From the NCBI GenBank assembly GCA_028705565.1, contig JAQWDH010000005.1, positions 5,803 to 69,802 on the forward strand: DNA of 64,000 nucleotides, in the 5' to 3' direction. Source of the DNA: Patescibacteria group bacterium (GTDB taxonomy: Bacteria; Patescibacteriota; Patescibacteriia; Magasanikbacterales; GWA2-37-8). How positions within the stretch are numbered: position 1 is the stretch's first letter; each line of letters starts with the position of its first letter. The notes beneath the pieces are model-generated. The model saw only the letters and a program-made list of their open reading frames with translations. It searched no databases and was not told the origin of the DNA. The translations under genes were made by a program, and so were the position numbers. Below are positions 6,256-41,952 of the stretch, one piece after another.

Positions 6256-6903
6256 ATGTCTTCTTATTTGACTTGGGACAGAATTAAAAATACGGATTTT
6301 TCCGAAACAAAAATAAACTCGCTTTACAACGAAGGGTATCTTTTTACGCGAATCGGAAAAGGCATCATGGACCAAACAAGAAGCGCGCGGATTGATTTGA
6401 ATAAATTCAATTTATCAAGCGAAAACAAACGGATATTGAAAAAAATGGAAAACGCGCGAATGGAAATAAAACCGATTCCATTGCTTGATTATGAATGGTC
6501 GGTGCATAAAATGGGAAAAGATTTTTATGAAAAAAAATTCGGGCCCGAAATTTTCAGTGCGCAAAAAATAAAAGAATTGATTACTGACAAAGAAAAAAGC
6601 AATTTTAACCGGCTGTTCGTTTTTTCAATCAATGACAAACCGGCTGGTTATTGCATCACTCTTGAAACCGACGAAATTTTGCATTATTCTTATCCCTTTT
6701 ATCAGCTATCGCTCCACATCGGCATGGGCATGATGACCAAGGCGGTGGCATGGGCAAAAGAAAAAAACAAAAAATATGTTTATCTTGGTTCGGCGCAACG
6801 CCCGACTGACGTTTATAAATTTCAATTTGAAGGCATGGAGTGGTTTGACGGCAAACAATGGATGAATGACATTAAAAAACTTAAAGAAATATTAAAAAAT
6901 TAA
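6256..6903 (+). CDS. Aminoacyl-tRNA-dependent transferase-like protein (ATE_C/Bpt-like GNAT fold; Fem-like alternative)
   Basis: 215 aa; C-terminal YVYLGSAQRPTDVYKFQFEGMEWFDGKQW resembles ATE_C/Bpt signature; sits in peptidoglycan gene context. Confidence 0.4.
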   Translation: MSSYLTWDRIKNTDFSETKINSLYNEGYLFTRIGKGIMDQTRSARIDLNKFNLSSENKRILKKMENARMEIKPIPLLDYEWSVHKMGKDFYEKKFGPEIFSAQKIKELITDKEKSNFNRLFVFSINDKPAGYCITLETDEILHYSYPFYQLSLHIGMGMMTKAVAWAKEKNKKYVYLGSAQRPTDVYKFQFEGMEWFDGKQWMNDIKKLKEILKN

Positions 6904-6928
6904 TGATATAAATTATTTTGCATATAGA

Positions 6929-7017
6929 GCTAAAATATTTTTTTATCTTTTTATTACCAACCGCCCGCAGGCGGCGGTCCTGAAAGGCCGTTTAAAAAGA
7001 TAAAAAAATATTTTAGC
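6929..7017. repeat. Structured intergenic element: about 24-bp AT-rich inverted repeat enclosing GC-rich hairpins
   Basis: gctaaaatatttttttatcttttt ... aaaaagataaaaaaatattttagc are exact reverse complements; inner ccgcc-cgcag-gcggcgg and ggcc hairpins. Confidence 0.7.
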
Positions 7018-7041
7018 GATATCGCGGAATTCTAATAAATT

Positions 7042-8421
7042 ATGAAACACATTCACTTTATCGGAATATGCGGCGTGGGTATGAGCGCGCTGGCTATACT
7101 CTGGCAAAAAAAAGGGTGGAAAGTCACCGGTTCAGATGCCGGATTTTTTCCGCCGATTTCAACTCATCTGAAAAAACACGGGATTGAATTTTACCCGGGA
7201 TGGCATCCGGAAAAAATGACCGGACAAGAAGGGTCTCTGCCCGATTTGGTTGTAGTCGGCAACGTGGCGGCTTCTGAAAATCCGGAATGGAAATTCACGC
7301 TTGAAAATAAAATTCCTTATGTTTCTTATCCTGAACTTATAGCGAAAAACTTGGTTAAAAAAAATTCTATCATCTGCGCCGGAACTTACGGCAAAACTTC
7401 CACAACGGCCATACTCGCTTGGATTTTAAAAAACGCGAATTATAAACCTTCATATATGTTCGGCGGTTTGAGTTTGGATATGGAAGAAAGCGCCGACGAT
7501 TTAGGCGGAGATTGGAGCATATTGGAAGGAGACGAATATAAAGCAAGTAGATGGGACAACCGAGCCAAGTTTTTTTCTTATCAACCGACGCATCTTTTGC
7601 TTACGGCGACTGAATGGGACCACGCGGATATTTACCCGACTGAAAAAGATTATTTTAACGCTTTTCGCGAGTTGATAAAAATAATTCCGGAAAACGGATT
7701 GATTGTCATTTCGGAAAATGTTCCTGAGAGCATAATATCTTTGTCGCGCGCAAAAATTTTAAAATACGGAAAAAAAGAAAATTGCGATTATGGATATTCG
7801 GATGTTAAAATCGATAAAAACGGAATCGCTTTAAAAATAACTTTCGGAAATTCTCATTTTTTCGTTTCATCCAATGTAATTGGAGAATACATGGCTGAAA
7901 ATATCTGCGGAGCGTTCGCTTTGGCGCGCGAAATCGGAATCGCGCCGGAAACGATTATCAAATCGCTCGCCGATTTTAACGGGTTGAAAAGAAGGATGGA
8001 AAAAAGAGGAAAAACTCAATCTGGAGCGGATGTTTTTGACGATATCGCCCACTCGCCAGCGAAAGCCAAGTCGGTTCTGGAAACATTAAAAAAAATATAT
8101 AACGGCAAAATTTACGCGATTTTTGAGCCGAACACCGGAAACCGCCAGCCGCAATCCGCGCCGCAATACGATTACGCTTTTGCCGCGGCCGACGAAGTTA
8201 TAATTCCGCGCCTTACAAAAATAAAATCATCCGAGGAACAAAAACACTTGAATGGCGGCGAATTGGCCAACATTATATTTCGCTCGCATAGCGCGGTAAA
8301 ACACATTGAGGACGACGATTACTTGATAAATTACATAAAACAAAAAACACAGCCGCGAGACGCTGTCGTGTTTCTGGGTAGCCATGGTTTCAGAGGAATG
8401 ATTGAAAAAATATTAGATTGA
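7042..8421 (+). CDS. murC: Mur ligase family: UDP-N-acetylmuramate--L-alanine ligase MurC or murein peptide ligase Mpl
   Basis: 459 aa; N-terminal HFIGICGVGMSALA and central Mur ligase domain GTYGKTSTT. Confidence 0.7.
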   Translation: MKHIHFIGICGVGMSALAILWQKKGWKVTGSDAGFFPPISTHLKKHGIEFYPGWHPEKMTGQEGSLPDLVVVGNVAASENPEWKFTLENKIPYVSYPELIAKNLVKKNSIICAGTYGKTSTTAILAWILKNANYKPSYMFGGLSLDMEESADDLGGDWSILEGDEYKASRWDNRAKFFSYQPTHLLLTATEWDHADIYPTEKDYFNAFRELIKIIPENGLIVISENVPESIISLSRAKILKYGKKENCDYGYSDVKIDKNGIALKITFGNSHFFVSSNVIGEYMAENICGAFALAREIGIAPETIIKSLADFNGLKRRMEKRGKTQSGADVFDDIAHSPAKAKSVLETLKKIYNGKIYAIFEPNTGNRQPQSAPQYDYAFAAADEVIIPRLTKIKSSEEQKHLNGGELANIIFRSHSAVKHIEDDDYLINYIKQKTQPRDAVVFLGSHGFRGMIEKILD

Positions 8422-9595: not shown

Positions 9596-9778
9596 TTAAT
9601 TGTATTTTTTTTCTTCTCCTTCTTCCATATCCTCCCCTGCTTCTCCTGCATACTCCCTGAGCAGGGAGTCTTTGTTTTTAATTTTCTTTTCTTTTTCTTC
9701 TTTTTCTTCTTCTTTTTTTTCCGACGACCACGGGTCGTCATTTTCATTCAAAAAAATATTATTGTTGGGTTTGGTCAT
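9596..9778 (-). CDS. Small highly acidic Lys/Glu-rich protein (60 aa)
   Basis: Perfect SD aggagg 6 nt upstream of ATG on minus strand; low-complexity KE-rich product; three short hairpins in region. Confidence 0.4.
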   Translation of the reverse strand: MTKPNNNIFLNENDDPWSSEKKEEEKEEKEKKIKNKDSLLREYAGEAGEDMEEGEEKKYN

Positions 9779-13118: not shown

Positions 13119-14479
13119 ATTTTGCTTGAATAAAACTGCGTGTTAAAAAGCTGAAAAACAAGCGGCGACAAAACCAAAAATAACGAAACGAAATAAGCCA
13201 AACGCGCCTCTTCGGTATAACGTTCGTCTCTATATCTTTTGTAAATAATAAAAACAATCCAACCGATAAACAAACCGAACGTCAAAAGACCGAATATTCC
13301 CTGCTCGGCCAAAAGTTTTTGCGCGATTCCGTGCGCGTCCAACGGGTCGCCGAATTCAAAACGAAACACGCCTATTTCTCCGGCGCGCGACAAAAAACTT
13401 CCTATACCTTGTCCGATAAACGGATGTTCTTTAAATAAAAACCAAGAAATGTTGGCGAGATACCAACGCGCCGCGGTTGAACTGCGGACAATCGGACTTG
13501 CTGTTAAAAAATACACGAGATAAACGAAAAGCGGAACAATAAAAAATGCGATTAAAAATTGAAATTTCCGCGCGTATTTTTTAAAATCTATTTTTTTACG
13601 CATCAAATAAACGAACACAACCGCCTCCACCGCCATTGTAAGCCAACCTGCGCGAGACAAAGTTAAAAGACCGATGATTAAAACAAATATCGTCGCCGCG
13701 CCGTAATATTTCCCACGCGCGGTGTTTTTATTTTTATACCAAAAATACAAAAATATCGGCAAGACGGAAGTTATCGTTTCGGCGAGAAAAATATGTTGGT
13801 CGCCGAAAGGCGCCCATCCGCCGATTGAGAACGGAGCGGCTCGGCGCATTCCGCCGGCTACAGCCCCCCATCCGAAAACGAAAGAAACAAATCCCATTGC
13901 CGCGCCCAAAAAACCGATTGACGCGAAAACAGCCAAACTTTTTTCCCAAATCTTTTTATCGTTCGCTATGTTCGCGCCGAGCATCACATAACCGAAATAA
14001 AATAATAAAAGAAAATGAAAAATATATTTTATTCCTCCAGCGATTTCAACAGACGACAAATTAATGAGCGACACGACAGCTGATAAAATAAAAAGCGCAA
14101 ACAAATGAAAACCCGGCAAGTTCACCTGTTCTGATTCGCCTTTGAAAAATCCACGAAATTTATTTATTACAAACGCGATTAAAAGCAAAATCGCCCAAAA
14201 TTCCACTGCCGGCGCGTTGACTTGTTCCAATCTGTAAAAACCTGAAAAAAAGGAAGGAAATTGTTCAAAACTTATAACCCAGTTGATGAGCGGTGAAATA
14301 AAAACCAAAATATACCAACCGATGTCTAAACGGTAAGAAACAGCCCAAGCCAAAAATAAAATGAAAAACACGGCCAAAGGCAAATATCCAACCCAAATAT
14401 AAAGCAGAACAAAACACAAAAACAGCAAAACAAAGCCAAAAAACTTGAAGGCCGTCTTTTTGTAAGAAATTTCCTTCAT
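13004..14479 (-). CDS. O-antigen ligase/Wzy-like polytopic membrane protein
   Basis: 491 aa, about 12 TM; Wzy_C-like LTLSRAGWLTMAVE motif. Confidence 0.55.
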   Translation of the reverse strand: MKEISYKKTAFKFFGFVLLFLCFVLLYIWVGYLPLAVFFILFLAWAVSYRLDIGWYILVFISPLINWVISFEQFPSFFSGFYRLEQVNAPAVEFWAILLLIAFVINKFRGFFKGESEQVNLPGFHLFALFILSAVVSLINLSSVEIAGGIKYIFHFLLLFYFGYVMLGANIANDKKIWEKSLAVFASIGFLGAAMGFVSFVFGWGAVAGGMRRAAPFSIGGWAPFGDQHIFLAETITSVLPIFLYFWYKNKNTARGKYYGAATIFVLIIGLLTLSRAGWLTMAVEAVVFVYLMRKKIDFKKYARKFQFLIAFFIVPLFVYLVYFLTASPIVRSSTAARWYLANISWFLFKEHPFIGQGIGSFLSRAGEIGVFRFEFGDPLDAHGIAQKLLAEQGIFGLLTFGLFIGWIVFIIYKRYRDERYTEEARLAYFVSLFLVLSPLVFQLFNTQFYSSKMWVPIALAVAQSIAYSSETLFANLRINFARKKKFVSKI

Positions 14480-14523
14480 ATATATCCATTATACCAAAAA
14501 TTTCGCATTTAGAGAAAAAGAAA

Positions 14524-14548
14524 GGGGGTTACACACAGGCAACCCCCA
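14524..14548. terminator. Bidirectional rho-independent terminator hairpin gggggtt-acacacaggc-aaccccc
   Basis: 7-bp GC stem with T-runs on both strands, downstream of the minus-strand gene ending at 14736. Confidence 0.6.
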
Positions 14549-14555
14549 AAAAATT

Positions 14556-14732
14556 TTGTCATTCCGATCCGCCCGGGGCGGAGAGAAATCTCTGCCGGTT
14601 ATTGTAAACCGGACAGAGATCCCTCGTTTCACTCGGGATGACACTTAAGTTTTTGTCATTCCGACGAAGGAGGAATCCCTGTCGGTTATTGTAAACCGGA
14701 CAGAGTTCCCTCGTTTCACTCGGGATGACACT
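14556..14732. repeat. Two tandem copies of palindromic MITE-like element (gtcattccga ... tcgggatgac termini; inner ctctg-ccggtt...aaccgg-acagag)
   Basis: Copy 1 14556-14645, copy 2 14653-14732, about 85% identical; termini and inner palindromes read directly. Confidence 0.8.
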
Positions 14733-15875: not shown

Positions 15876-15970
15876 AAAAAACCTCCCGCCCGTCCGCTTT
15901 TAAGCCGACGATACATTTGTTAAGGGCTAAACAACCCATAGAAAGGATGTGTTTAGCGCGAGCTTTCTTA

Positions 15971-15996
15971 TGTCTATAGTCTATAGACTATAGACT
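15971..15996. promoter_or_regulatory. Three closely spaced palindromic CTATAG hexamers upstream of the Cys-repeat gene
   Basis: t-ctatag-t-ctatag-a-ctatag-acta read directly, about 95 bp upstream of start at 15875. Confidence 0.4.
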
Positions 15997-16008
15997 ATTT
16001 AATTGTCA

Positions 16009-16173
16009 AAGAATACGCAAGTATAGCATATTTTAGCTGTCATCCTGAACACAGTGAAGGAACTCTGTCTGTTGTTGTTTAATCAATTGGACAGAGATTC
16101 TTCGCTTTGCTCAGAATGACAATTAACAAAACTCGCTAAAAGTTCAAAGAATACGCAAGTATAGCATATTTTG
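16009..16173. repeat. MITE-like palindromic element (gtcatcctgaac...tgctcagaatgac) flanked by 28-bp direct repeats caaagaatacgcaagtatagcatatttt
   Basis: Direct repeats at 16009-16036 and 16146-16173; inner element 16037-16131 has ctctgtc/gacagag inner palindrome like the 14556 family. Confidence 0.75.
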
Positions 16174-16289
16174 ACGATTTTGTCAAGTTTTTAAGCGCTT
16201 TTTTCGCTTGTTTTAAGCAAAAAACCGCCTTTTGGGCGGCAAATTTGGATGTTGATTTTACCTTATTTTGGTAAAATTTATTTTTTAAA

Positions 16290-20424: not shown

Positions 20425-20733
20425 TTACTGTAATTTGAGGAGTTCAGAGAGAGCTACTATTTCTCTTTCTAAAAATAGCTTTTTTTCCACATAATCGCTT
20501 TTTGCCTTTGGATCTTTCTCCTCCTTTATTTTTTCACATAACTCCTCTCGGAGTTTGTAAAGCTTTTCAATTTCTTCTTTATCTTTTTCGCCACTAGACC
20601 AAGAAATTGCTATGTCCAATTTTTCTTCCTCTACTTTATTTTTTGGATTTGGATTTAGCTCATCTAAATAATTTTTAAGTTCATCCTCAATCTCAATAAA
20701 ATCCTCTGTTTCATTTGGTTTTTTATTTGTCAT
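20425..20733 (-). CDS. Hypothetical acidic coiled-coil protein
   Basis: 102 aa ORF, no recognisable domain. Confidence 0.35.
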   Translation of the reverse strand: MTNKKPNETEDFIEIEDELKNYLDELNPNPKNKVEEEKLDIAISWSSGEKDKEEIEKLYKLREELCEKIKEEKDPKAKSDYVEKKLFLEREIVALSELLKLQ

Positions 20734-20862
20734 TTTTTTCTCCCTTTTTTAATCTTTTTTTTATATTTTAAAGGACCGCTTAATTTAAATTAAACCATAT
20801 TTAAAAAATTTGGTCAATCGCCTGTACAATACAGGACTGTCGCCGAATGTGTTTGTCATTCC

Positions 20863-20992
20863 GACCATAGCGAAGCGAAGTGGAGGAATCCCTCTTACGG
20901 TCAATGGACGACTGGCGACAGACGACGGACAGACAAAAGGGATTCCTCCACTCATTTCATTCGGTCGGAATGACAGAATGAAATGATTTTTG
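20863..20992. repeat. Palindromic MITE-like element (gtcattccgacc...ggtcggaatgac; inner gtggaggaatccc...gggattcctccac)
   Basis: Outer and inner inverted repeats read directly; ORF-track ORF 20785..21012 lies inside it. Confidence 0.8.
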
Positions 20993-21031
20993 TTATTCGG
21001 CGACAGCCTCAATACACATTCAGTGAAAGGT

Positions 21032-22498: not shown

Positions 22499-23999
22499 AT
22501 AATAATTTGTTTACCACCCAAACAATAAACCCGTATATTGCGACCATTCCCCACCACGGAAGAAAAAAATCCATCGCGGATAAATTCCAACCGCCTATTT
22601 TTTCCGCTATCATTATAACATAATTCAAACCGATGCCCACAATCCAGGCGACAACTTGCCCGAAAGGAAACCAAACAAAACTCAAAACAACAGCCAAAAA
22701 ACCGAAAAACATCAAATAAGGAACAATCCACAAAATCAAAACATTGGCTACCGGAGCGATCGCGGATAATCGACCGAATTGAAATAAAATCAGAGGCAAG
22801 GTGGCGATAATGGCGGAAAAAGTCGGAGCTAAAATTTGTTTAAACAACGAGGATTTGTTTTTTCCACCTAAAAACGGACTTAGATAAACGATTCCGGCGG
22901 TTGCCAAAAAAGACAACTGAAATCCCGCGTCCCAAACAAGAACATACGGATTAAACAAAAGCATCAACGCCGCCGCCAAAGCCAAAACATATCCTACGCG
23001 CGATAATCTGCCTAAACGCTCGGCGATTAAAAGCACAACACCCATAATTCCGGCGCGCATAACCGAAGCTGAAGCGCCAGTAAAAATGACAAAAACGCAA
23101 ATACCAAAAATCGCAAGCCAAAAAGCTTGACGCCTGTATAATCCGGCTGAAACCAAAAAAATCATAAAAGCCGCGGCAATAATGTTTATATTATAACCTG
23201 ACACAGCGACAATATGCGAAATGCCGGCTCTATTAAAATTTTCTTTCAAATCATCGGGTATTCCGGAACGCGCGCCGTAAAGCAATCCTGATAAAAGTCC
23301 GCTGTCCGGTTCAGGCCATAATTTTTCTATCTGTTCGTTTATCCTAGTTTTTAACCGTAAAATATTTTTTAAAACAAAATTTCCCTCGTCCGCGCCGATT
23401 TTTTCAATTTTCGCGTTTACGCATATTGACCAAATTCCGTCTTTCGCCAAATATCTGTCGTATCTGAAATTTCCATCAGGACTGTTTCGCGGACTTTTCA
23501 AATCGCACGATATTTTTAACTTATCTCCATATTCGTAGCGTGGATACAACAGGCCTTCAACTAACGCGCGTCCGGAAACTTTTTTATTGGAAGACGCTTC
23601 TAAATCATAAATAAATTCTGTTTTAATAATATATTTAACGCTGTCAGGACGGATGTCCGGCTCGCCCACCACCCAACCTATGATTTTTCCTCTCTCTCCG
23701 TTGTAATATAAAATGTTTTTCGCGTCTCCGGATGGAACGCTAATAAAAAAACGAATAGCTCCCAAAACAAAAAATAAAACGCAAAAAAACAAAAATCTGC
23801 TGTTTATATTTTTCCAAAAAATCGCAATCGCGAAAACCAAACACCAAAAAACAACAAATAAATAAAATAAAATATTTTTTTCAATGTCCGAATAAGAAAA
23901 AATGCCGACTCCTGAAATAAAACAAAAACAGAGCATAAGAAATGCCCCGCTTTTTGAATTGATAATTTTTTCAACAACATTCTCTTTCCGAAATGTCAT
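22485..23999 (-). CDS. comEC: ComEC/Rec2 DNA-uptake channel, membrane domains only (DUF4131 + competence domain)
   Basis: 504 aa polytopic; OB-fold-like N-region and competence-domain helices; MBL domain encoded separately at 21032..21877. Confidence 0.65.
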   Translation of the reverse strand: MTFRKENVVEKIINSKSGAFLMLCFCFISGVGIFSYSDIEKNILFYLFVVFWCLVFAIAIFWKNINSRFLFFCVLFFVLGAIRFFISVPSGDAKNILYYNGERGKIIGWVVGEPDIRPDSVKYIIKTEFIYDLEASSNKKVSGRALVEGLLYPRYEYGDKLKISCDLKSPRNSPDGNFRYDRYLAKDGIWSICVNAKIEKIGADEGNFVLKNILRLKTRINEQIEKLWPEPDSGLLSGLLYGARSGIPDDLKENFNRAGISHIVAVSGYNINIIAAAFMIFLVSAGLYRRQAFWLAIFGICVFVIFTGASASVMRAGIMGVVLLIAERLGRLSRVGYVLALAAALMLLFNPYVLVWDAGFQLSFLATAGIVYLSPFLGGKNKSSLFKQILAPTFSAIIATLPLILFQFGRLSAIAPVANVLILWIVPYLMFFGFLAVVLSFVWFPFGQVVAWIVGIGLNYVIMIAEKIGGWNLSAMDFFLPWWGMVAIYGFIVWVVNKLLYVKN

Positions 24000-26900
24000 A
24001 CCACAATGCTAACCAATTTTCCTTTTACATAAATTATTTTTTTCGGCTCTTTGCCTTCCAGCCATTTTTGAATTTTTTCACTCGCGAGCGCTTGTTTTTT
24101 AGCTTCTTCTTCGCTTATCTCCGCTGGCGCGATTAAACTATCGCGAACCTTGCCGTTCACCTGCACAACCAAAATAATTTCGTTCTCCATTGCCGATTTG
24201 GCGTCATATTCAGGCCATTTTTCAAAAATTACGCTTTTTTTATGCCCCAACAAACTCCAGATTTCTTCGCAAAAATGCGGGGCGAACGGCGATAATATCT
24301 TAATAAATAAAGAATAATGTTCAATTGATATTGTTTCTTGTTTTGATAATTCATTTGCTAACTCCATCATTTTCGCGATAGCCGTGTTAAAGCGCATCGC
24401 TTCAATGTCTTCGGTGACTTTTTTTATTGTTTGATGAAGCACAGATGTTATTTTGTCATTGCGAGGATTCGCCCAGGGCGAAGATGAAGCAATCCCGTCA
24501 TTTTTTTGTTTAGTTTTGCTTTTAACGACACGGTCAAAAAGAAACCACACTTTCTCCAAAAATCTTTTAGTTCCAACCAATCCGTTGGTATTCCAAGCGC
24601 ACGGCTGACTGAAGGGACCCATAAACATTTCATAAACGCGCATCGCGTCAGCTCCAAATTCCTTTACCACATCGTCCGGGTTTATCACGTTTCCCCAACG
24701 TTTGCTCATCTTGCGACCGTCTTCGGCTAAAATCAATCCGACGCTTTGTAATTTTTCAAACGGCTCTTCTTTATTAACAACGCCGATATCATATAAAAAT
24801 TTATGCCAAAAACGAGCGTAAATAAGATGACGCGTGGCGTGCTCGGCTCCACCGACATAAAAATCAACCGGAAGCCACCAATCAAACGCTTTACTGTAAT
24901 TGGAAATTGGAAAATTGCCTGCCTGCCGGTAGGCAGGGAAATTGGAAATTTTTTTCATGATATACGCGAGATAATACCAACACGACCCAGCCCATTGGGG
25001 CATCGTGTTGGTTTCTCGTTTCGCCGGTCCTCCGCATTTAGGACATTTTACGTTCACCCATTTTTGAATTCCGGCAAGCGGCGACTCGCCCGTGCCTGTC
25101 GGAACATAAGATTTCACATTAGGAAGCTTTATCGGCAATTTATCTTCCGGTATCGCCATCCAACCCGGATTTAATCGTTCACCATTGGAAATTGTCTCCT
25201 TTCGGGAGATATCCTGTGGGAGAAAATTTTCCATTGATTTTTTACACGCTGGGCAAAAAATCAATGGTATTGGTTCTCCCCAATAACGTTGTCTGGAAAA
25301 AACCCAATCGCGCAATTTATAATTTATTTTCCGTTCCCCATATTTTTTGTCTTCCAACCATTTGATTATTTTTTCTTTCGCCTCTTTGGTTGATAAACCG
25401 TCCAAAAATGTTGAATTAACCGACAGTCCATCGCCCGTATAAGCGCTATTTTTTACGAATTTTTCAAAAAGATAATGATGCAGAGGGTCTTTTACTTTTT
25501 CATCCGCTTCTTTTTCAGTTATCCATTCCAATTTGAATTTGTCTTTTTCCTTATCTGTTAAATTTTGCCCTCCATTTTTTTCGTCAGACAATTCAAAAAA
25601 CAAACCGACTGCTTCTATTTCACGATTTACATTTTTAGAGGCGGCAAAATAATGATGATGAATTTTTTCCGATTCGGCTATTAATTTTACATTTTTATAT
25701 CCTGTTTCTTCTTCAATTTCCCTTTGAGCGCATTTAACCGCGTCCTCTCCGTCTTTTAATCCTCCGCCGATAAATAAATTTCCTCCAAATTTTTCGCCCC
25801 AATTCAAAGAAAGAAGTTTATTGTTTTTTGGGTCGCGCACCAATGCCACGATACTGCGACGAAATTCCTCATTGTCTTTTTTCTGTCCGGTAATCGGCTC
25901 TACCACGGTTTTAATCGGCAATCCGTATTTTTTCGCGAATTCCATATCTCTGTCGTCATGCGCCGGCACGGCCATAACAGCTCCGGCGCCATAACCTCCG
26001 ATTACATAATCGGCGACAAAAATAGGCAATTCCTCGCCGTTGACCGGATTTATCGCTTTAATACCTTTAATTTCAACGCCGGTTTTGTCTTTTTGCAGTT
26101 CGCTTCGTTCCAAAACCGTTTTGTGTTTTGCTTTTTCAACATACGCGGCTATGTCAGCGAAATTTTCAATTTTCCTGCCTACCGGTTTACATACCGTAGG
26201 TATGTTTACATACCGTAGGTATGCAGGGAGACAATTTTCAATTAAAGAATGCTCAGGGGCGACAACAACATAAGTCGCGCCGAATAAAGTATCCGGACGA
26301 GTGGTAAAAACCTCCAAAATGTCATTGCGAGGAATTCCCGAAGGGGATGACGAAGCAATCCCACTGTTACCATTATAATTGTTATAAGATTGCTTCGCTT
26401 CACTCGCAATGACAAAACGCACTGTCGCTCCTTCGCTTCTGCCAATCCAATTTTTTTGCATTTCCTTAATCGCTTCAGGCCAATTTTTCAATTTATCCAA
26501 ATCATTTAACAGCCGTTCGGCGTAATCGGTAATTTTTAACACCCATTGTCTCATTGGCTTCTGCTCAACAGCGGAACCGCAACGCTCGCATTTTCCATCC
26601 TCCAAATCCTCATTTGCCAAACCTGTCTGGCACGACGGACACCAATTTATCGGAGCGTATGATTCATAAGCCAAACCTTTTTTAAACATTTGCAAAAACA
26701 TCCATTGCGTCCATTTATAATATTCCGGATCCGTTGTATTTATTTCCCTGCTCCAATCATAAGTAAAACCCAAAAGTCCAAGCTGTTTTTTGAATATCTT
26801 GATATTTTTTTCAGTCGCTACGCGTGGATGAACTTTATTTTTAATGGCGTAATTTTCCGCCGGCAAACCGAAAGCGTCCCATCCCATCGGATGCAAAACA

Positions 26901-27115
26901 TTAAACCCCTGCATTTGTTTCATTCTGGCGATGACATCGGTGGCGATATAACCTTTCGGATGCCCGACATGCAAACCGGCTCCGGAAGGATACGGAAACA
27001 TATCCAAAATATAATACTTCGGCTTGTCAAAAGTTTTTTTGGTTTGAAAAAGTTTTTTCTTTTCCCAATATCTCTGCCACTTTTTCTCAATTTTTTCCGG
27101 ATTATAATTTTTCAT
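23996..27115 (-). CDS. leuS: Leucyl-tRNA synthetase with NUDIX-domain insertion and two in-frame palindromic-element insertions
   Basis: HVGHP, NWIGRSEGATVRF, AHDDRDMEFAKKYGLPI, KLRDWVFSRQRYWGEPIP, VGGAEHATRHLIYARFW, KMSKRWGN motifs; 1039 aa vs typical about 820-860. Confidence 0.9.
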   Translation of the reverse strand: MKNYNPEKIEKKWQRYWEKKKLFQTKKTFDKPKYYILDMFPYPSGAGLHVGHPKGYIATDVIARMKQMQGFNVLHPMGWDAFGLPAENYAIKNKVHPRVATEKNIKIFKKQLGLLGFTYDWSREINTTDPEYYKWTQWMFLQMFKKGLAYESYAPINWCPSCQTGLANEDLEDGKCERCGSAVEQKPMRQWVLKITDYAERLLNDLDKLKNWPEAIKEMQKNWIGRSEGATVRFVIASEAKQSYNNYNGNSGIASSSPSGIPRNDILEVFTTRPDTLFGATYVVVAPEHSLIENCLPAYLRYVNIPTVCKPVGRKIENFADIAAYVEKAKHKTVLERSELQKDKTGVEIKGIKAINPVNGEELPIFVADYVIGGYGAGAVMAVPAHDDRDMEFAKKYGLPIKTVVEPITGQKKDNEEFRRSIVALVRDPKNNKLLSLNWGEKFGGNLFIGGGLKDGEDAVKCAQREIEEETGYKNVKLIAESEKIHHHYFAASKNVNREIEAVGLFFELSDEKNGGQNLTDKEKDKFKLEWITEKEADEKVKDPLHHYLFEKFVKNSAYTGDGLSVNSTFLDGLSTKEAKEKIIKWLEDKKYGERKINYKLRDWVFSRQRYWGEPIPLIFCPACKKSMENFLPQDISRKETISNGERLNPGWMAIPEDKLPIKLPNVKSYVPTGTGESPLAGIQKWVNVKCPKCGGPAKRETNTMPQWAGSCWYYLAYIMKKISNFPAYRQAGNFPISNYSKAFDWWLPVDFYVGGAEHATRHLIYARFWHKFLYDIGVVNKEEPFEKLQSVGLILAEDGRKMSKRWGNVINPDDVVKEFGADAMRVYEMFMGPFSQPCAWNTNGLVGTKRFLEKVWFLFDRVVKSKTKQKNDGIASSSPWANPRNDKITSVLHQTIKKVTEDIEAMRFNTAIAKMMELANELSKQETISIEHYSLFIKILSPFAPHFCEEIWSLLGHKKSVIFEKWPEYDAKSAMENEIILVVQVNGKVRDSLIAPAEISEEEAKKQALASEKIQKWLEGKEPKKIIYVKGKLVSIVV
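24455..24496. repeat. Palindromic element inserted in-frame in leuS, 42 bp, encodes GIASSSPWANPRND
   Basis: gtcattgcgagg-attcgcccagggcgaa-gatgaagcaatccc; length divisible by 3; ORF continuous through it. Confidence 0.75.
25440..25860 (-). other. NUDIX hydrolase domain embedded in LeuRS between the editing domain and the KLRDW segment
   Basis: Nudix box GGLKDGEDAVKCAQREIEEETGY fits Gx5Ex7REUxEExGU, at about 25698-25769; preceded by RSIVALVRDPKNNKLLSL. Confidence 0.7.
26321..26413. repeat. Palindromic element inserted in-frame in leuS, 93 bp, encodes ...YNGNSGIASSSPSGIPRNDI
   Basis: gtcattgcgag...cgaagcaatc / gattgcttcg...ctcgcaatgac inverted repeats; 31 codons; sits just after the NWIGRSEGATVRF start of the CP1 domain. 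Confidence 0.8.
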
Positions 27116-27251
27116 GCAATTAATGTTATCTTTTTAATTTTATCCAAAATAAACAAAAAAAGCAACCCTTATATTGACAACGCCCAATTTATATGCCAAA
27201 ATTAAATAGCTCTTTAAAAAAATAAATAGCTTGCCTACCAAGGAGGAAAAA

Positions 27252-27356
27252 ATGAATACAACGACAGCATTACTCTATTTCCTTTTAATCTTAACAATTG
27301 CCGCCCTACTTACATTGGCGACGATTGAAATTTACAACACATATTTTCTTTATTAG
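27252..27356 (+). CDS. Small single-TM peptide 1 (34 aa) MNTTTALLYFLLILTIAALLTLATIEIYNTYFLY
   Basis: Own translation; perfect SD aaggagg 6 nt upstream; below 60-aa ORF-track cutoff. Confidence 0.5.
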   Translation: MNTTTALLYFLLILTIAALLTLATIEIYNTYFLY

Positions 27357-27366
27357 GAGGTAAAAA

Positions 27367-27516
27367 ATGAAAAAGGTGTTAAAAGGAATACTTATTTTTT
27401 TTGCTTTTTTATTATTAACAATTCCGATTGTCCTTATATACTGGGTATTCTGCCCTGTATATAGTAAACGTCTATTGGAAGAATTAGAATTAGACAAGGA
27501 GGAAAGAAATGTTTGA
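27367..27516 (+). CDS. Small single-TM peptide 2 (49 aa) MKKVLKGILIFFAFLLLTIPIVLIYWVFCPVYSKRLLEELELDKEERNV
   Basis: SD taggagg upstream; TM helix plus charged C-terminal tail. Confidence 0.55.
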   Translation: MKKVLKGILIFFAFLLLTIPIVLIYWVFCPVYSKRLLEELELDKEERNV

Positions 27517-27667
27517 TAATATTTACACAAATTTTGTTTTTATTTTAACTGCTGTTAGTATTATTTCTTACATTATTTTCAAAGCCGTATCATATATTGC
27601 GGCTTGGAGAATAAAAAAATTCACTGAAAAAATAATTAAAGAGGAGGAAAAAAATGCCTCCAAATAA
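27509..27667 (+). CDS. Small single-TM peptide 3 (52 aa) MFDNIYTNFVFILTAVSIISYIIFKAVSYIAAWRIKKFTEKIIKEEEKNASK
   Basis: SD aaggagg at 27496-27502; start overlaps stop of peptide 2 (atgtttga), translational coupling. Confidence 0.55.
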   Translation: MFDNIYTNFVFILTAVSIISYIIFKAVSYIAAWRIKKFTEKIIKEEEKNASK

Positions 27668-27797
27668 TAATATAAATTTAATTTTTAATTCTCTAGTAGA
27701 GGTTTCTAAAAACCTCTTAATGGGGATAATCGTAATTATTGCCGCGATTATTGTGATGGTCGCGGTAATAACTATCATGGAAAAAATTAAAAATTAA
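27654..27797 (+). CDS. Small single-TM peptide 4 (47 aa) MPPNNNINLIFNSLVEVSKNLLMGIIVIIAAIIVMVAVITIMEKIKN
   Basis: SD gaggagg at 27641-27647; start overlaps the 3' end of peptide 3. Confidence 0.55.
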   Translation: MPPNNNINLIFNSLVEVSKNLLMGIIVIIAAIIVMVAVITIMEKIKN

Positions 27798-27806
27798 ATA
27801 ACAAAA

Positions 27807-27836
27807 AGCGAGCCAAGGTCGGCTCGCTCTTTTAAT
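27807..27836. terminator. Rho-independent terminator agcgagcc-aaggtc-ggctcgct followed by T-run; bidirectional (gdhA ends at 27843)
   Basis: 8-bp GC-rich stem followed by cttttaatt. Confidence 0.7.
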
Positions 27837-27842
27837 TATATT

Positions 27843-29111
27843 TTAAAATTTTATCGCTTTCGCCACTCTGTCTATCGCCAACGCGAACGCGGCTGTCCGC
27901 ATATCAACACCGTGTTTTTCTTTCATCTCCCAAATTTCAGCGAAAGCTCCTGTCATTTTTTCTTCCAATTTTTTCAAAACTTCCACTTCGGTCCAATGTT
28001 CATTTTTAAGATTTTGTTCCCACTCAAAACAGCTTACGGTAACTCCTCCGGCGTTCGCGAGCACATCCGGAACGACTGTTATGCCTTTGGCTTTTAAAAT
28101 TTCATCGGCTTCCGGAGTCGTCGGACCGTTCGCCATTTCCATAATGGCTTTGGCTTTGACGCGCGGAGCGTTATCCGCCCTGATTTGATTTTCCAAAGCG
28201 GCCGGCACGAGAATATCAACATCCAATTCCAAAATTTCTTCATTGGAAATAAAACGGCACGGACCATCTTTGGAAATTTGATTGAGAGTGCAGACCGAAC
28301 CGAGGCAATAACACCCGAGCATCCCGCCGGCTTTTTTAATTTTTTCCGCTTTATACGGGTCAACTCCGTCTTCATTAAAAACTCCGCCTTGCGAATCGCT
28401 CAAAGCCACAATTTTAAATCCCATTTTATGTAAAATTTTCGCGACATAACCTCCGACATTTCCAAATCCCTGCACCGCGACTGTTATTTGCTTTCCTTCC
28501 CAGCCCATTTTTTTTACAAGCTCGCGCGCGCAATAAGCCCCGCCTTGTCCGGTCGCCGATTCCCTGCCTTCACTCCCGCCGTCCGCTATCGGCTTGCCGG
28601 TGACAACGCCCGGGTCGGAATGGCCTGATAATTTTTCGTATTCGTTTCTCATCCACGCCATTATTTTCGCGTTTGTGTACACATCGGGAGCCGGCACATC
28701 TTTGTCCGAACCGATTTCACGCCAAATTTTTTGGATATAACCGCGCGATAACCTTTCCAATTCGCCCTCTGATAAATCTTTCGGGTTCACAATCACGCCG
28801 CCCTTGCCTCCGCCCATCGGTATCCCGACTGTCGCGCATTTTATCATCATCCAAAATGACAAAGCCATAACCTCGTCCAAACTCACATTCGAATGGTAAC
28901 GAATTCCGCCCTTATACGGCCCCAGCGCGTTATTGTATTGCGAACGATAACCTGTAAAAACTTTTATTTCCCCATCGTCCATTTTTACCGGAATATAAAC
29001 GGTTAAAATCTTATCCGGATTTTTTAAAATTTCATGTATATTTTTATCCAAATTTATGACTTTTGCCGCTTTGTCCAGTTGCGACAAACAATTTACAAAA
29101 AGCGCAGACAT
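27843..29111 (-). CDS. gdhA: Glutamate dehydrogenase (Glu/Leu/Phe/Val DH family)
   Basis: 422 aa; KGGIRYH..., GFGNVGG Rossmann motif. Confidence 0.85.
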   Translation of the reverse strand: MSALFVNCLSQLDKAAKVINLDKNIHEILKNPDKILTVYIPVKMDDGEIKVFTGYRSQYNNALGPYKGGIRYHSNVSLDEVMALSFWMMIKCATVGIPMGGGKGGVIVNPKDLSEGELERLSRGYIQKIWREIGSDKDVPAPDVYTNAKIMAWMRNEYEKLSGHSDPGVVTGKPIADGGSEGRESATGQGGAYCARELVKKMGWEGKQITVAVQGFGNVGGYVAKILHKMGFKIVALSDSQGGVFNEDGVDPYKAEKIKKAGGMLGCYCLGSVCTLNQISKDGPCRFISNEEILELDVDILVPAALENQIRADNAPRVKAKAIMEMANGPTTPEADEILKAKGITVVPDVLANAGGVTVSCFEWEQNLKNEHWTEVEVLKKLEEKMTGAFAEIWEMKEKHGVDMRTAAFALAIDRVAKAIKF

Positions 29112-33595: not shown

Positions 33596-33622
33596 TTATT
33601 GTGCTAAAGCCACACAACACTT

Positions 33623-33732
33623 CCAGCAGGGTCGAATGACCCTGCCAGCCAGGTCGCTCAATCCTGCCAGCAGGGTCGAATGATACTGCCAGCAGGGTCG
33701 AATGATACTGCCAGCAGGGTCGAATGACCCTG
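33623..33732. repeat. Five abutting tandem 22-bp units ccagcagggtcgaatgaccctg, each containing a 7-bp stem hairpin
   Basis: Units at 33623, 33645 (degenerate), 33667, 33689, 33711; no spacers. Confidence 0.85.
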
Positions 33733-33835
33733 TGGATAAGTTGTTTTGCCTTATTGTAGCGGAATAATAATAAGTATGGTAAGATAAGAAAGTAAAAGTC
33801 ATTATTTTATCTTTATAAAGAGAGGGGGTGAATTT

Positions 33836-34111
33836 ATGAACAAAGCAGAATTATCACAAGCATTAGCGGAAAAATTAAGCGCTTCCAAAAAAGAAGCCGA
33901 GGATATGATAAATGGTTTTATTGAAATCGTCACATCTTCTTTAAAGAAGGGCGAAGAAGTGGTTTTAACAGGTTTCGGCGCTTTCAGCGCTAAAATGCGC
34001 GCCGCTCGCGTAGGTGTTAACCCACAAAATCCTTCAGTAAAAATTCAGATCCCGGCCGTGAAAGTACCGAAATTTAAAGCAGGAAAGGCGTTAAAAGACG
34101 CTTTGAAATAA
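33836..34111 (+). CDS. hup: DNA-binding protein HU
   Basis: 91 aa; MNKAELSQALAEKLSASKKEAEDMINGF and GFGAFS, RAARVGVNPQNP HU signature; SD agggggtg. Confidence 0.9.
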   Translation: MNKAELSQALAEKLSASKKEAEDMINGFIEIVTSSLKKGEEVVLTGFGAFSAKMRAARVGVNPQNPSVKIQIPAVKVPKFKAGKALKDALK

Positions 34112-35676: not shown

Positions 35677-36261
35677 ATGATGGAAGGAGAACTTATACGT
35701 GTTGGAGACGAAGTTATCATTACAATTCCGAAGGAGAATCGGGATTGGGGCTGCAACCCATGCCCTGATGGTTCAAAAGCGACCGTCCTCGGCTTCTCAG
35801 AAATCCACTATGGACGGCTCACAAATTGTGACATCAAACCCGGGGTGTACACCAACTACTATTGGGTGAAGCTACGTATAGAAGACGGCCGTGAGCTCAC
35901 GGTACCGGACCGCTTCCTTGAACTCTCTGACAAGTCCGTGTACGAACAACGGCTGGAGGCATTCCAAAAATACCAACGGGAAAATCCCGACAACTGGTAT
36001 AAAAACGAGGAATTTATTCGGGAACTTCCAGATACTCCATTCTGTGAAGGCGATCTCGTTTGCGTCCGTGACAGTTACTTAATCAGGAGCGCACGACGAA
36101 ACAACTTCCAAGTTATGGGGATTGACTATGACAGTAGAGAAAAAATAATGTATTGGCTCGCTTCCGACATATCGCATGTGAAGTCCTTAATTGTATATGA
36201 AGACGATATAGAGCTCGTCGAACACGGCTCTGTGTGGAAGAAGCTCCATAATAAAGAATAA
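35677..36261 (+). CDS. Hypothetical protein, GC-richer than surroundings (likely horizontally acquired)
   Basis: 194 aa ORF with SD ggaaggagg; codon usage visibly higher GC; adjacent to tRNA genes. Confidence 0.5.
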   Translation: MMEGELIRVGDEVIITIPKENRDWGCNPCPDGSKATVLGFSEIHYGRLTNCDIKPGVYTNYYWVKLRIEDGRELTVPDRFLELSDKSVYEQRLEAFQKYQRENPDNWYKNEEFIRELPDTPFCEGDLVCVRDSYLIRSARRNNFQVMGIDYDSREKIMYWLASDISHVKSLIVYEDDIELVEHGSVWKKLHNKE

Positions 36262-40900: not shown

Positions 40901-41483
40901 TGTTCAATTCCATTTGCCCTTCCAAAGCCGGCAAATCCATCAGCTCCAAATAAAAATTTTCCTTTCCAAAAATGTCCTGATATTCTTTAACAGCCGATTC
41001 GGCTTTTTTTATATCGTTTTCTTTATTCAAAATCCAAGGAATTTCTCCCCGCAGGCACGCGGATAAAGCGATTATACCTTCATGATATTGCCGCAATAAT
41101 TCTTTATCCAAACGAGGCTTATAATAAAATCCTTCCAAATGCGCCAAAGAGGATAATTTCATCAAATTTTTATAACCTGTATAATCCAACGCCAATAAAA
41201 CCAAATGAAAATATTTCTGGTCATGCGCATTTTTTTCAAACCTGTTGTTCGGCGCCAAATACGCTTCCATTCCGATTATCGGTTTGATTCCTTCTTTCAG
41301 GCACTCCTGATAAAATTCAATCGCCCCATACATATTGCCGTGGTCGGTCAAAGCGAGCGCGCTAAAACCTCTCGCTTTGGCGGCTTTCACAAGTTCGGGA
41401 ATTTTTGGCAAACCATCCAACAAAGAATAGTGGCTATGAACATGAAGATGAACAAATTTTGACATATTGTCGTTATAACTCAT
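37995..41483 (-). CDS. dnaE: DNA polymerase III alpha subunit
   Basis: 1162 aa; N-terminal PHP domain HLHVHSHYSLLDG, polymerase core, OB fold. Confidence 0.9.
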   Translation of the reverse strand: MSYNDNMSKFVHLHVHSHYSLLDGLPKIPELVKAAKARGFSALALTDHGNMYGAIEFYQECLKEGIKPIIGMEAYLAPNNRFEKNAHDQKYFHLVLLALDYTGYKNLMKLSSLAHLEGFYYKPRLDKELLRQYHEGIIALSACLRGEIPWILNKENDIKKAESAVKEYQDIFGKENFYLELMDLPALEGQMELNTKLVQLSKDTGAPLVVTRDAHYLNPEDSEAQDILTCIRDGRTIEEQDRQTMAGIDCSLATGEEIAKRFKHIPEVMENTVKIAERVDLKIELNKWNFPPIEIPPGVTADEYLKEQAYKRLPDLIKVGEEEKKRLDYELEIIAKKGYSPYFIVVADYVNYARENGIVETTRGSAAGSLVAYAMGITTVNPLFFKLPFERFLNPFRPSPPDIDADFADDRRDDMIAYVTRKYGADKVAQIITFGTMMARGAVRDVGRALGYTYSFCDHVAKLIPFGAQGFQMTLARALELEPELKSLYEKNSQVKRLLDLAQKIEGCGRHTSIHAAGVVISPTPLTDFTPVQYEVGGDKIITQYEMHAVEASGVLKMDFLGIRNLSILGHAVEIVEKTTGKKVDIYNLYPWDDKKTYEMLARGETVGVFQLSGSGMTRYLKELKPESILDIMAMVALFRPGPMDSIPDYIRRKNHLENVEYLDSRMQDYLDQSLGLIVYQDDVLLTAINLAGYNWEEADKFRKAMGKKIPEVMAKQKDKFYKGCKEFGKLSETKINQLWERIEPFAAYGFNKAHAASYAVVAYQTAFMKANFPVQFMTAVLIAESGDIEKVPEIIRECEKMGIRVLPPDINESFKNFAMVGWENNEQHIRFGLNGVKNLGEHIADVIYRERKERGEYKNLEDFLARVQDKDLNKKSLESLIKCGALDSFNQDRGILLANIENLLSFTRQTQEAKNTKQNSLFIGTKMDMSSKIRLEPAAQAVEEEKLKWEKELLGLFVTAHPFTIFEKLMAGCLTSINDLPAQPRGRWVAVGGVIDSIQKKITRNGKPMMFATLEDTTGLLELLVFPRTYETTKDVWQEGKTVCVLGKTSEEENDDKFFVEKAYILTKENAVSIARQLGLNSQKPQTGDDKNFFEVFTDRIEIKIPASVVKSKADEIKTVLKKYQGSKPVYLVVGDKKIKTSYTIGEGKEIKEELKKIIPD

Positions 41484-41527
41484 TAAAAGGCAATGTATTT
41501 TAACCTAAAATAACAAAAAAAAGCAAA

Positions 41528-41557
41528 CAAAAATCCCGACTGTATGTCGGGATTTTT
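41528..41557 (-). terminator. Rho-independent terminator aaaaatcccgac-tgtatg-tcgggattttt
   Basis: Stem-loop followed by T-run on minus strand, just downstream of the 41569 stop. Confidence 0.7.
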
Positions 41558-41568
41558 GCTTTAATTTT

Positions 41569-41952
41569 CTATTTCGCGGAATCTGTTATCTTCTTTATTT
41601 TCTTTGCCGCGGATTCAACCGCTTTATTCACTGCTTCCTTGGCGGTTTTATTCGCGCTTTCCGCGCCTCTGTCCAGCCACTCCTCGGCTTTGCGCGAAAC
41701 CACTTTCTTTACCAGTCCGGTCGCGCCCTCAGCCGCGAATGTCATTAAATTTGATATTTGTTCAACTCTGTTTTTCACATGATTGATTGATTCAGTGAGA
41801 GACTGCAAACGCACCCTGAATTCTTCAGCGATTTTGCTGGCATTTTTTAAAATTCTAATCGCGTAAAAAAACATCCAACATAAAAATACGGTCACCCATA
41901 AAATACAAAAAGAAATAACTATATATAAAATGTCTTTTGAAGTGAATAGCAT
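41569..41952 (-). CDS. DUF948-like membrane protein (N-terminal TM + helical Ala/Lys-rich domain)
   Basis: 127 aa; TM ILYIVISFCILWVTVFLCWMFFYAI followed by amphipathic helical region. Confidence 0.45.
   Translation of the reverse strand: MLFTSKDILYIVISFCILWVTVFLCWMFFYAIRILKNASKIAEEFRVRLQSLTESINHVKNRVEQISNLMTFAAEGATGLVKKVVSRKAEEWLDRGAESANKTAKEAVNKAVESAAKKIKKITDSAK

Follow-up and report, generated by a model that had tools for sequence, protein, structure and literature searches.

A cluster of four consecutive small open reading frames (sORFs; ORF1 to ORF4) was analyzed in a stretch of 64,000 nucleotides (the window) of contig JAQWDH010000005.1 from a Patescibacteria group bacterium. The four plus-strand sORFs of 34, 49, 52, and 47 amino acids (aa) were found at positions 27252-27797 between leuS and the convergent gdhA, as claimed by an earlier model reading of the DNA (the original prediction; Table 1). 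The wider neighborhood includes ComEC beyond leuS, and thioredoxin and IF2 beyond gdhA. Each sORF follows a Shine-Dalgarno (SD) core of the sequence AGGAGG, separated from the ATG by 5-6 nt. These motifs had been described as AAGGAGG or GAGGAGG at a spacing of 6 nt, which was accurate with regard to the perfect cores at all four sORFs, but not for ORF1, where the spacer is 5 nt, nor for ORF2, where the motif is TAGGAGG and the stop codon TAG of ORF1 forms part of SD2. The two overlapping junctions noticed earlier were both recovered, with lengths of 8 nt between ORF2 and ORF3 (ATGTTTGA) and 14 nt between ORF3 and ORF4. In addition, the GC skew over the cluster flips to the sign expected of plus-strand coding.

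The arrangement AGGAGG-N4-9-ATG occurs at eight sites in the 64-kb window, compared with 0.97 expected, and none of 100 shuffled sequences reached eight. The cluster holds four of the eight sites. Perfect SDs precede all four sORFs and only two of the 47 long ORFs in the window (Fisher p = 6e-5). When the 25 nt before each start codon were read, any SD-like motif was found for only about four of the 47 long ORFs, and neither leuS nor gdhA has one upstream. The genome is SD-poor and the sORF cluster stands out in it, such that the original prediction, which called perfect SDs uncommon in this window, had understated the case. About half of Parcubacteria 16S sequences have been reported to lack the anti-SD motif (PMC9297842). 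In this organism, AGGAGG is enriched ahead of ORF starts, which provides indirect evidence that its ribosome reads SDs, and the high expression previously ascribed to the genes would follow from the strength of their SDs. Elsewhere in the window, the remaining perfect SDs precede genes without a confident Pfam family, and SD use seems to be reserved for a small class of accessory genes. One of these is an acidic sORF whose N-terminus (MTKPNNNIFLN) resembles the start of ORF4 (MPPNNNINLIFN).

The description of the cluster as unannotated was accurate for ORF1, which was called by no gene caller and is missing from the protein collection searched. It did not hold for the other three: ORF3 is already listed by NCBI as a hypothetical protein (MDD4476998.1 and MFA5175183.1), and gene callers predicted ORF2, ORF3, and ORF4 in assemblies made independently by JGI, Logan, and ENA.

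Each of the four peptides contains a single hydrophobic helix, for which the best 19-residue Kyte-Doolittle window scored 2.3-3.4, and charged tails are present on the peptides of ORF2, ORF3, and ORF4; both features had been described correctly. The ORF1 peptide consists of one helix and includes no basic residue. The ORF2 peptide begins with a basic N-terminus, followed by the helix and a tail of mixed charge, while the ORF3 peptide has an N-out helix with an embedded lysine and a basic/acidic tail. In the ORF4 peptide, the N-terminal residues (about 20) are polar or amphipathic and the helix is C-terminal. The hydrophobic moment was 0.3-0.6 in ORF1, ORF2, and ORF4, compared with 1.04 in ORF3. 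The isoelectric points (pI) of the four peptides were 4.05, 7.87, 9.40, and 8.25 from ORF1 to ORF4, and the net charges ranged from -1.5 to +2.5. An AlphaFold2 model of the four peptides, fused and predicted from a single sequence, rendered each of them as one long helix.

The mutual dissimilarity of the four sequences was also borne out, as no paralogy was found among them at the protein or DNA level beyond the SD and hydrophobic runs. A tandem duplication of one cassette was suggested by the 142/145-nt spacing of the SDs and by a 49-nt repeat at 73% identity. This candidate was rejected, as codon-shuffle tests showed no similarity past the SD and Tandem Repeats Finder (TRF) identified just two simple repeats of 15-17 nt and no repeated cassette.

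A second haplotype of the locus, assembled independently in JGI 3300037067 (contig L008) and ENA ERZ27247363 (contig L009), was compared against the window over 2.76 kb. The flanks, which comprise leuS, the promoter region, ORF1, and gdhA, included eight differences in approximately 2,375 positions, or an identity of about 99.7%. Between them lies a divergence island at 27391-27779 with 58 substitutions and two indels relative to L008 and L009, or a divergence of about 15% (Fisher p = 2e-42). Both indels are in frame in the second haplotype, with a gain of 27 nt in the ORF3 tail and a loss of 3 nt in ORF4. All starts, stops, overlaps, frames, and SD cores were retained, and SD4 remains AGGAGG despite three changed neighboring bases. 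The possibility that the cluster is a pseudogene of one four-helix protein was rejected: although the frames step 0/1/2/0, every segment starts from a perfect SD and an ATG of its own, and both haplotypes have retained these.

The substitutions were distributed differently among the four sORFs, as estimated from the ratio of nonsynonymous to synonymous rates (dN/dS) by the Nei-Gojobori method. ORF2 differed from L008 by 10 substitutions and three conservative residue changes (dN/dS 0.15), and ORF4 by 16 substitutions in addition to its in-frame deletion (dN/dS 0.19). None of these 26 substitutions was at codon position 2, for which the chance is (2/3)^26 = 3e-5, and the residue changes in both peptides were exchanges among L, I, V, M, and F. 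The ORF3 helix was replaced at 16 of its 25 positions and yet remained hydrophobic and kept its embedded lysine, resulting in a dN/dS of 2.6 over the 25 helix codons and 0.77 overall. The N-terminus and the juxtamembrane tail of ORF3 were identical between haplotypes, synonymous sites included. ORF1 was identical in L008 and had one conservative change, A17V, in L009. The SDs, the retention of frames, and the dN/dS of ORF2 and ORF4 support the claim of the original prediction that these are real genes.

Open antisense ORFs of 74 and 62 aa were also found within the cluster, in the register where third codon positions coincide. These frames are open because a T at sense position 2 corresponds to an A at antisense position 1, where no stop can form, and the long antisense ORFs are thus a by-product of register. 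For ORF2, the dN/dS was 0.15 in the sense frame compared with 0.41 in the antisense frame, and the plus frame had the lowest value among the stop-free frames.

The synonymous divergence (dS) inside the island was 0.24-0.36, and the divergence of the island was approximately 35-fold above that of its flanks. Such a high dS beside near-identical flanks shows that the island cannot be the product of point mutation since the last common ancestor of the flanks. It is either a recombination import from a more distant lineage or an old polymorphism. The island is also a mosaic, as a 91-nt stretch at 27446-27536, which covers the ORF2 tail, SD3, and the start of ORF3, contains no change. The chance of such a stretch was about 4e-7 at the average rate of the island and about 0.009 when only synonymous sites were considered. 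Both haplotypes were present in a single assembly, ERZ27247363 (contigs L006 and L009), where the assembly graph split into contigs of 761 and 785 nt. A diversity-generating retroelement was rejected, since no template-like repeat was found in the 64-kb window and the substitutions were of all types. Similarly, flanking repeats of a mobile element were sought at the locus, and none was convincing.

A further contig, L003 (Logan SRR22315507), was identical to the window over 26982-28607 within a compared region of 26840-28880. Beyond approximately codon 45 of leuS, the match breaks off sharply and the contig continues with a leuS of about 30-40% nucleotide divergence, and its gdhA past 28608 shows scattered differences from the window. 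This contig could be either a recombinant that carries the same sORF cassette in another background or a chimeric assembly.

Homologues of the four peptides were sought in both protein and genome collections. The four peptides were concatenated and searched exhaustively with HMMER against 1.84 billion cluster representatives, which yielded only three clusters, all self or allelic; in a local phmmer check, the concatenated query recovered the peptides themselves. ORF3 alone matched only its two alleles among 5.8 billion clusters. No match at or near family thresholds was found in Pfam, PHROGs, NCBIfam, or PADLOC, with the best PHROGs matches (E = 0.01-0.03) being to families of unknown function, and the best match in a sequence search of the PDB had an E-value of about 1. 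The locus had no match in phage and plasmid DNA, on which ground a phage or plasmid origin was rejected. In addition, no further copies of the sORFs were found in the 64-kb window.

GdhA of the window shares about 72% identity with its counterpart in Candidatus Magasanikbacteria metagenome-assembled genomes, and the gdhA-then-leuS order was kept in 15 Magasanikbacteria-like genomes. The sORF peptides were encoded in none of these 15 syntenic intervals, which range from 49 nt to 3.5 kb and, as read from translations, contain either nothing, an Fpg-like gene, an inositol-monophosphatase-like gene, or other content. A tblastn search of the peptides against 55 gdhA loci likewise produced matches at chance level only. 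One relative (contig L010) encodes a single orphan sORF in its gdhA-leuS slot, of 47 aa with one helix and a perfect SD, at the same position and in the same orientation. Its product (MFENL...) was considered as a homologue of ORF3 (MFDNI...) or ORF4 and was rejected, as the similarity is not significant. Together with the orphan sORFs of another relative (contig L040), it suggests a recurrent turnover of small membrane ORFs in or next to this slot. The original prediction had proposed conservation of the ORFs as a check on the cluster, and the outcome was divided: ORF2 to ORF4 stayed open through all changes in the island, but they lack homologues and are absent from the syntenic relatives. 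The missing homologues, the absence from a slot that is variable among relatives, the low GC content, and the divergence between co-existing haplotypes point to an accessory status.

The boundaries of a putative transcript were also examined. The candidate promoter upstream of ORF1 is a consensus match only, with 10 of 12 consensus positions and an extended -10 TG, and it is 100% identical in L008. Promoter-like sites in the region were not in excess (11 compared with 9.6 in shuffled sequences), and the single minus-strand site within the cluster scored 9 of 12. The intrinsic terminator previously placed at the end of the cluster was found, and it is in addition bidirectional, with a stem of -15.4 kcal/mol on the plus strand (z = -4.1) and -19.7 kcal/mol on the minus strand (z = -6.0). 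Because it folds on both strands, it would serve the sORF operon and the convergent gdhA alike.

The 636-nt transcript region had a predicted folding energy of -161.7 kcal/mol, compared with -112.5 ± 5.1 kcal/mol in shuffled sequences (z = -9.6). A scan of the window in 300-nt segments gave a mean z of -0.6 (standard deviation 1.7), and the 3' half of the cluster, at -8 to -9 on both strands, ranks among the most extreme values. The predicted elements include a hairpin that would mask SD4, which was predicted in both haplotypes, and a dense set of helices at 27676-27799. In L008, the ORF4 region keeps a z of -4.7, while the value for the whole region falls from -6.4 to -2.8. By manual count, approximately five substitutions were compatible with the predicted helices and approximately seven were disruptive; the changes at 27692, 27695, and 27720 keep or improve one predicted helix. 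Given this balance and the weaker z in L008, conservation of the predicted RNA structure is unproven. An Rfam search of the region found no family or small RNA (sRNA) match. Other 300-nt segments of the window with a z of -6 to -13.6 were 14401-14700 (-), 15901-16200 (-), 20701-21000 (-), 33601-33900 (+), 6901-7200 (+), and 41401-41700 (both strands), which may represent terminators, repeats, or structured RNAs.

Table 1. Features of the sORF cluster, its flanking genes, other SD-led genes of the window, and orphan sORFs of relatives (positions in the window unless a contig is named)
Feature	Position	Strand	Description
Candidate sigma-70-type promoter	27174-27202	+	TTGACA, 17 nt, TG-n-CAAAAT; about 50 nt upstream of ORF1
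ORF1	27252-27356	+	34 aa, MNTTTALLYFLLILTIAALLTLATIEIYNTYFLY; SD1 AGGAGG at 27241-27246
ORF2	27367-27516	+	49 aa; SD2 AGGAGG at 27355-27360
ORF3	27509-27667	+	52 aa; SD3 AGGAGG at 27497-27502
ORF4	27654-27797	+	47 aa; SD4 AGGAGG at 27642-27647
Anti-SD-like UAUUUCCUU inside ORF1	27276-27284	+	Predicted pairing with SD2 (global fold) or SD1 (local fold)
SD4-masking hairpin	GGAGG 27643-27647 with CCUCC 27657-27661	+	Predicted; ORF4 codons 2-3, AUG in loop
A/U helix, 14 bp	27676-27689 with 27786-27799	+	Predicted; encloses the ORF4 hairpins
Hairpin in ORF4, 8 bp	27698-27717	+	Predicted
Hairpin in ORF4, 16 bp	27736-27771	+	Predicted
Bidirectional intrinsic terminator	27803-27832	both	Stem 27807-27828
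leuS	23996-27115	-	One flank of the cluster
gdhA	27843-29111	-	Other flank, convergent with the cluster
Acidic sORF	9596-9778	-	60 aa; perfect SD AGGAGGAAAAAAATG; net charge -7; no Pfam or PHROG match
194-aa protein	35677-36261		Perfect SD upstream; no Pfam match
127-aa protein	41569-41952	-	Perfect SD; N-terminal helix and coiled coil; Pfam matches sub-threshold only
Orphan sORF of relative	L010 1728-1871	-	Within 37-48 aa; one helix; SD-led
Orphan sORF of relative	L040 7370-7516	+	Within 37-48 aa; one helix; SD-led
Orphan sORF of relative	L040 5724-5837	+	Within 37-48 aa; one helix; SD-led

The minus-strand leuS includes two in-frame copies of a palindromic element at 26312-26377 and 24446-24511 (GGGATTGCTTC...CCTCGCAATGAC), which translate as GIASSSPSGIPRND and GIASSSPWANPRND. 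Akin translations ('...RFARNDN...' and '...SLRAKRGNL...') were observed in contig L052 at 7153-7581. The two copies look like repeat-element insertions tolerated inside LeuS.

With moderate confidence, the cluster is interpreted as a real, lineage-restricted accessory operon, apparently confined to one species, whose four small single-pass membrane proteins would be produced jointly through SD-dependent translational coupling. A single mRNA would extend from the candidate promoter to the bidirectional terminator and encode four unrelated proteins of 34-52 aa, each with one membrane-spanning helix. Translation would start at perfect SDs, which nearly all other genes of this genome lack. Coupling would be provided by the ORF1 stop inside SD2 and by the overlaps of ORF2 with ORF3 and of ORF3 with ORF4. 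SD4, and possibly SD2, would be masked by pairing within the mRNA until a ribosome on the upstream ORF opens it. The masked SD4 and the 14-nt overlap suggest a concrete mechanism, in which ribosomes that finish ORF3 would open the SD4 hairpin and permit translation of ORF4. The four products would thereby be made together in a fixed proportion, and from this co-translation we infer that the peptides may assemble into a small hetero-oligomeric module that acts in the cell membrane.

What such a module might do can be proposed only tentatively. In co-existing haplotypes, the helices of ORF2 to ORF4 differ, but their starts, SDs, junctions, and juxtamembrane tails have been preserved. This contrast leads to the guess, which we favor over a housekeeping subunit although we consider it rather unlikely to be correct, of a module for strain-specific antagonism or protection, in which at least one membrane-active peptide would be accompanied by cognate protective partners. 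A narrower and distinctly doubtful version is a strain-specific membrane recognition or antagonism module whose specificity would reside in the transmembrane (TM) helices, with the exchange of the ORF3 helix between haplotypes matched by changes in ORF2 and ORF4. Balancing or diversifying selection would keep the alleles in a Patescibacteria population, and SD dependence would provide an expression channel left unused by the rest of the genome. If true, an episymbiotic lineage would possess a polymorphic small-peptide system of a new kind.

Several observations weigh against the interpretation as a coupled operon of membrane proteins or limit its reach. The use of SDs is deduced from nothing more than the enrichment of AGGAGG before ORFs, as the 16S gene lies outside the window. 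ORF1 appears to be the weakest of the four, with almost no comparative information, and its case is built on its SD, helix, and position. With two haplotypes and one single-base variant known, the estimates of selection are based on 10-32 substitutions per ORF, and the dN/dS of at least 1 in the ORF3 helix is also compatible with relaxed constraint. For ORF4, the sense frame (dN/dS 0.19) and the open antisense frame (0.21) are alike; therefore, the strand call is based on the SD, the ATG, and the GC skew. The GC content of the cluster, 27-29% compared with 40-50% in the flanks, equals that of intergenic DNA, and it would fit a foreign origin, an intergenic ancestry, or plain coding rich in I, L, F, K, and N. 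The AlphaFold2 fusion had a mean predicted local distance difference test score (pLDDT) of 67 and a predicted template modeling score (pTM) of 0.39, values at which the model is uninformative on packing and neither supports nor refutes complex formation. Lastly, an antagonism or immunity role is a guess from indirect evidence, namely the accessory distribution and the co-existing diverged alleles, whose differences are concentrated in the helices.

Among the alternatives, the original prediction had likened the cluster to type I toxins, holin-like peptides, or membrane modulators, and none of these gained support from a family match, a phage context, a partner gene, or an antisense RNA signal. 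Toxic peptides of the type I toxin or holin-like kind would depolarize or permeabilize the membrane of the producer itself, with the structure of the mRNA, and perhaps an antisense RNA, restraining translation. Small hydrophobic single-helix peptides with charged tails, an unusually structured mRNA with SD4 and possibly SD1 or SD2 masked, and a lineage-specific, fast-evolving locus would all be expected of them. However, this explanation is considered unlikely, as the locus is a coupled operon of four different ORFs, not a lone toxin gene paired with its RNA antitoxin, and has neither an excess of promoter-like sites nor a convincing antisense promoter or an Rfam sRNA match. Nor were there toxin or holin matches in Pfam, NCBIfam, or PHROG, an endolysin or phage context, or more copies within the 64 kb. 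The partner-subunit alternative, where the peptides would serve a larger membrane machine, encoded at another site, as accessory subunits or regulators comparable to KdpF, CydX, AcrZ, or psbEFLJ, draws on the fact that most characterized small membrane proteins of bacteria act in this way (review PMC12648545), and coupled translation would suggest a fixed stoichiometry. It is nonetheless quite unlikely, as the operon contains no partner gene, relatives with the same core machinery lack the peptides, and the replaced ORF3 helix is hard to reconcile with a conserved docking surface.

Exported leaderless peptides directed against competitors or a host, of the aureocin A70/garvicin KS or phenol-soluble-modulin type, would account for the layout of 3-4 consecutive leaderless sORFs (PMC6131525), and allelic diversification would suit an antagonism locus. 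The original prediction had set class II bacteriocins aside for want of a GG leader. While there is indeed no GG dipeptide in any of the four peptides, this ground was too quick, because leaderless multi-peptide bacteriocins exist. An exported function is instead highly improbable on account of the pI of 4.1-9.4 and net charge of about -1 to +3, compared with a pI of about 11 and +4 to +5 in the family, the full-length TM stretch in each peptide, the lack of paralogy, and the absence of an adjacent ABC transporter or immunity gene. It is also very unlikely that the cluster has little or no function and consists of ORFs that are newborn or in decay within an intergenic slot that is AT-rich and recombining, with the low dN/dS as small-sample noise. 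T-rich DNA does give hydrophobic helices by default, the peptides are orphans with an intergenic-like GC content in a variable gdhA-leuS slot that holds other orphan sORFs in relatives, the ORF3 helix has a dN/dS of at least 1, and antisense frames are open as well. Yet in a genome poor in SDs, four perfect and correctly spaced ones are very improbable by chance, the SD cores, starts, stops, and overlaps survive a divergence of 15% with both indels in frame, no position-2 changes occurred in ORF2 or ORF4, and the open antisense frames are explained by register. Finally, a locus that is mainly a structured RNA with secondary ORFs is barely credible. The z of -9.6, the value retained over ORF4 in L008, and the three helix-keeping changes speak for it; against it stand the absence of an Rfam match, the surplus of disruptive over compatible substitutions, the fall of z in L008, the similar scores of both strands, as plain inverted repeats would give, and the pattern of SD, ATG, and ORF that it leaves unexplained.

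An accessory operon of small membrane proteins would matter for several reasons. Under-annotation affects small membrane proteins everywhere, and in Patescibacteria, whose membranes are the interface with their hosts, such proteins have hardly been studied. As this locus shows, SD-led sORFs are easy to pick out in SD-poor genomes. If the divergence of the island reflects selection on helix-helix specificity, the locus would offer a compact model for polymorphic membrane-peptide systems; if it does not, it would still be instructive as an example of how orphan genes turn over at one fixed genomic slot.

The cluster was also compared with known systems. The leaderless multi-peptide bacteriocins aureocin A70 (AurA-D), garvicin KS, and the cereucins are encoded by 3-4 consecutive leaderless sORFs that are often missed by annotation, and their mutually homologous peptides have 30-34 aa, a pI of about 10.7-11, a net charge of +4 to +5, and a grand average of hydropathy (GRAVY) of 0.4-0.7 (PMC6131525). 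Like aureocin A70 and garvicin KS, the cluster is a short locus of adjacent leaderless and very short ORFs, each with its own SD. In contrast to their paralogous, strongly cationic, and amphipathic peptides, the sORF peptides are non-paralogous, near-neutral, and full TM helices, and they are encoded between leuS and gdhA rather than next to transporter or immunity genes. The staphylococcal psm-alpha operon is another example of consecutive leaderless and very short ORFs that each have their own SD.

The type I toxins Hok, Fst, TisB, DinQ, and Ldr/Ibs resemble the sORF products as small hydrophobic single-helix peptides, with a structured mRNA able to mask the SD. The products share with them a size below 60 aa and one TM helix, but not a single ORF per transcript or a family match. 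Each of their mRNAs carries a single toxin ORF, is paired with an RNA antitoxin, and usually has translation signals that are weak or occluded, whereas the cluster has four ORFs with perfect SDs. The traits of a holin or lysis cassette were missing, as the locus has no Pfam holin, no phage DNA match, and no endolysin, and its neighbors are housekeeping genes. Likewise, the large partner typical of KdpF, CydX, or AcrZ was absent from the operon, and the ORFs were absent from the 15 syntenic relatives. The psbEFLJ genes encode four adjacent, co-transcribed, and universally conserved single-TM-helix subunits of a large complex. The cluster is similar in having four adjacent single-helix genes, which implies a hetero-oligomeric membrane assembly, and differs in that it is not conserved and has no known partner complex. 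Patescibacteria are not known to have a photosystem or a respiratory chain.

The cluster also resembles small membrane proteins of E. coli such as YohP, AcrZ, CydX, and MgtS, which were found via strong ribosome-binding sites in intergenic DNA (review PMC12648545). Members of both groups have fewer than about 50 aa and one TM helix, were missed or only partly annotated, and were recognized by an SD and a short ORF, and membrane insertion via the signal recognition particle (SRP) and YidC is presumed to be common to them. While the genes of the YohP and AcrZ class are usually single or located in the operon of a large partner and are conserved at the genus or family level, the four sORFs are unrelated orphans that form a coupled operon of their own with two diverged alleles. 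Judged by sequence, the cluster would be a new orphan set within this known class of bacterial small membrane proteins, made unusual by its four-gene coupled layout, its apparent use of SDs in an SD-poor genome, its predicted structured mRNA, and its bounded hypervariable island.

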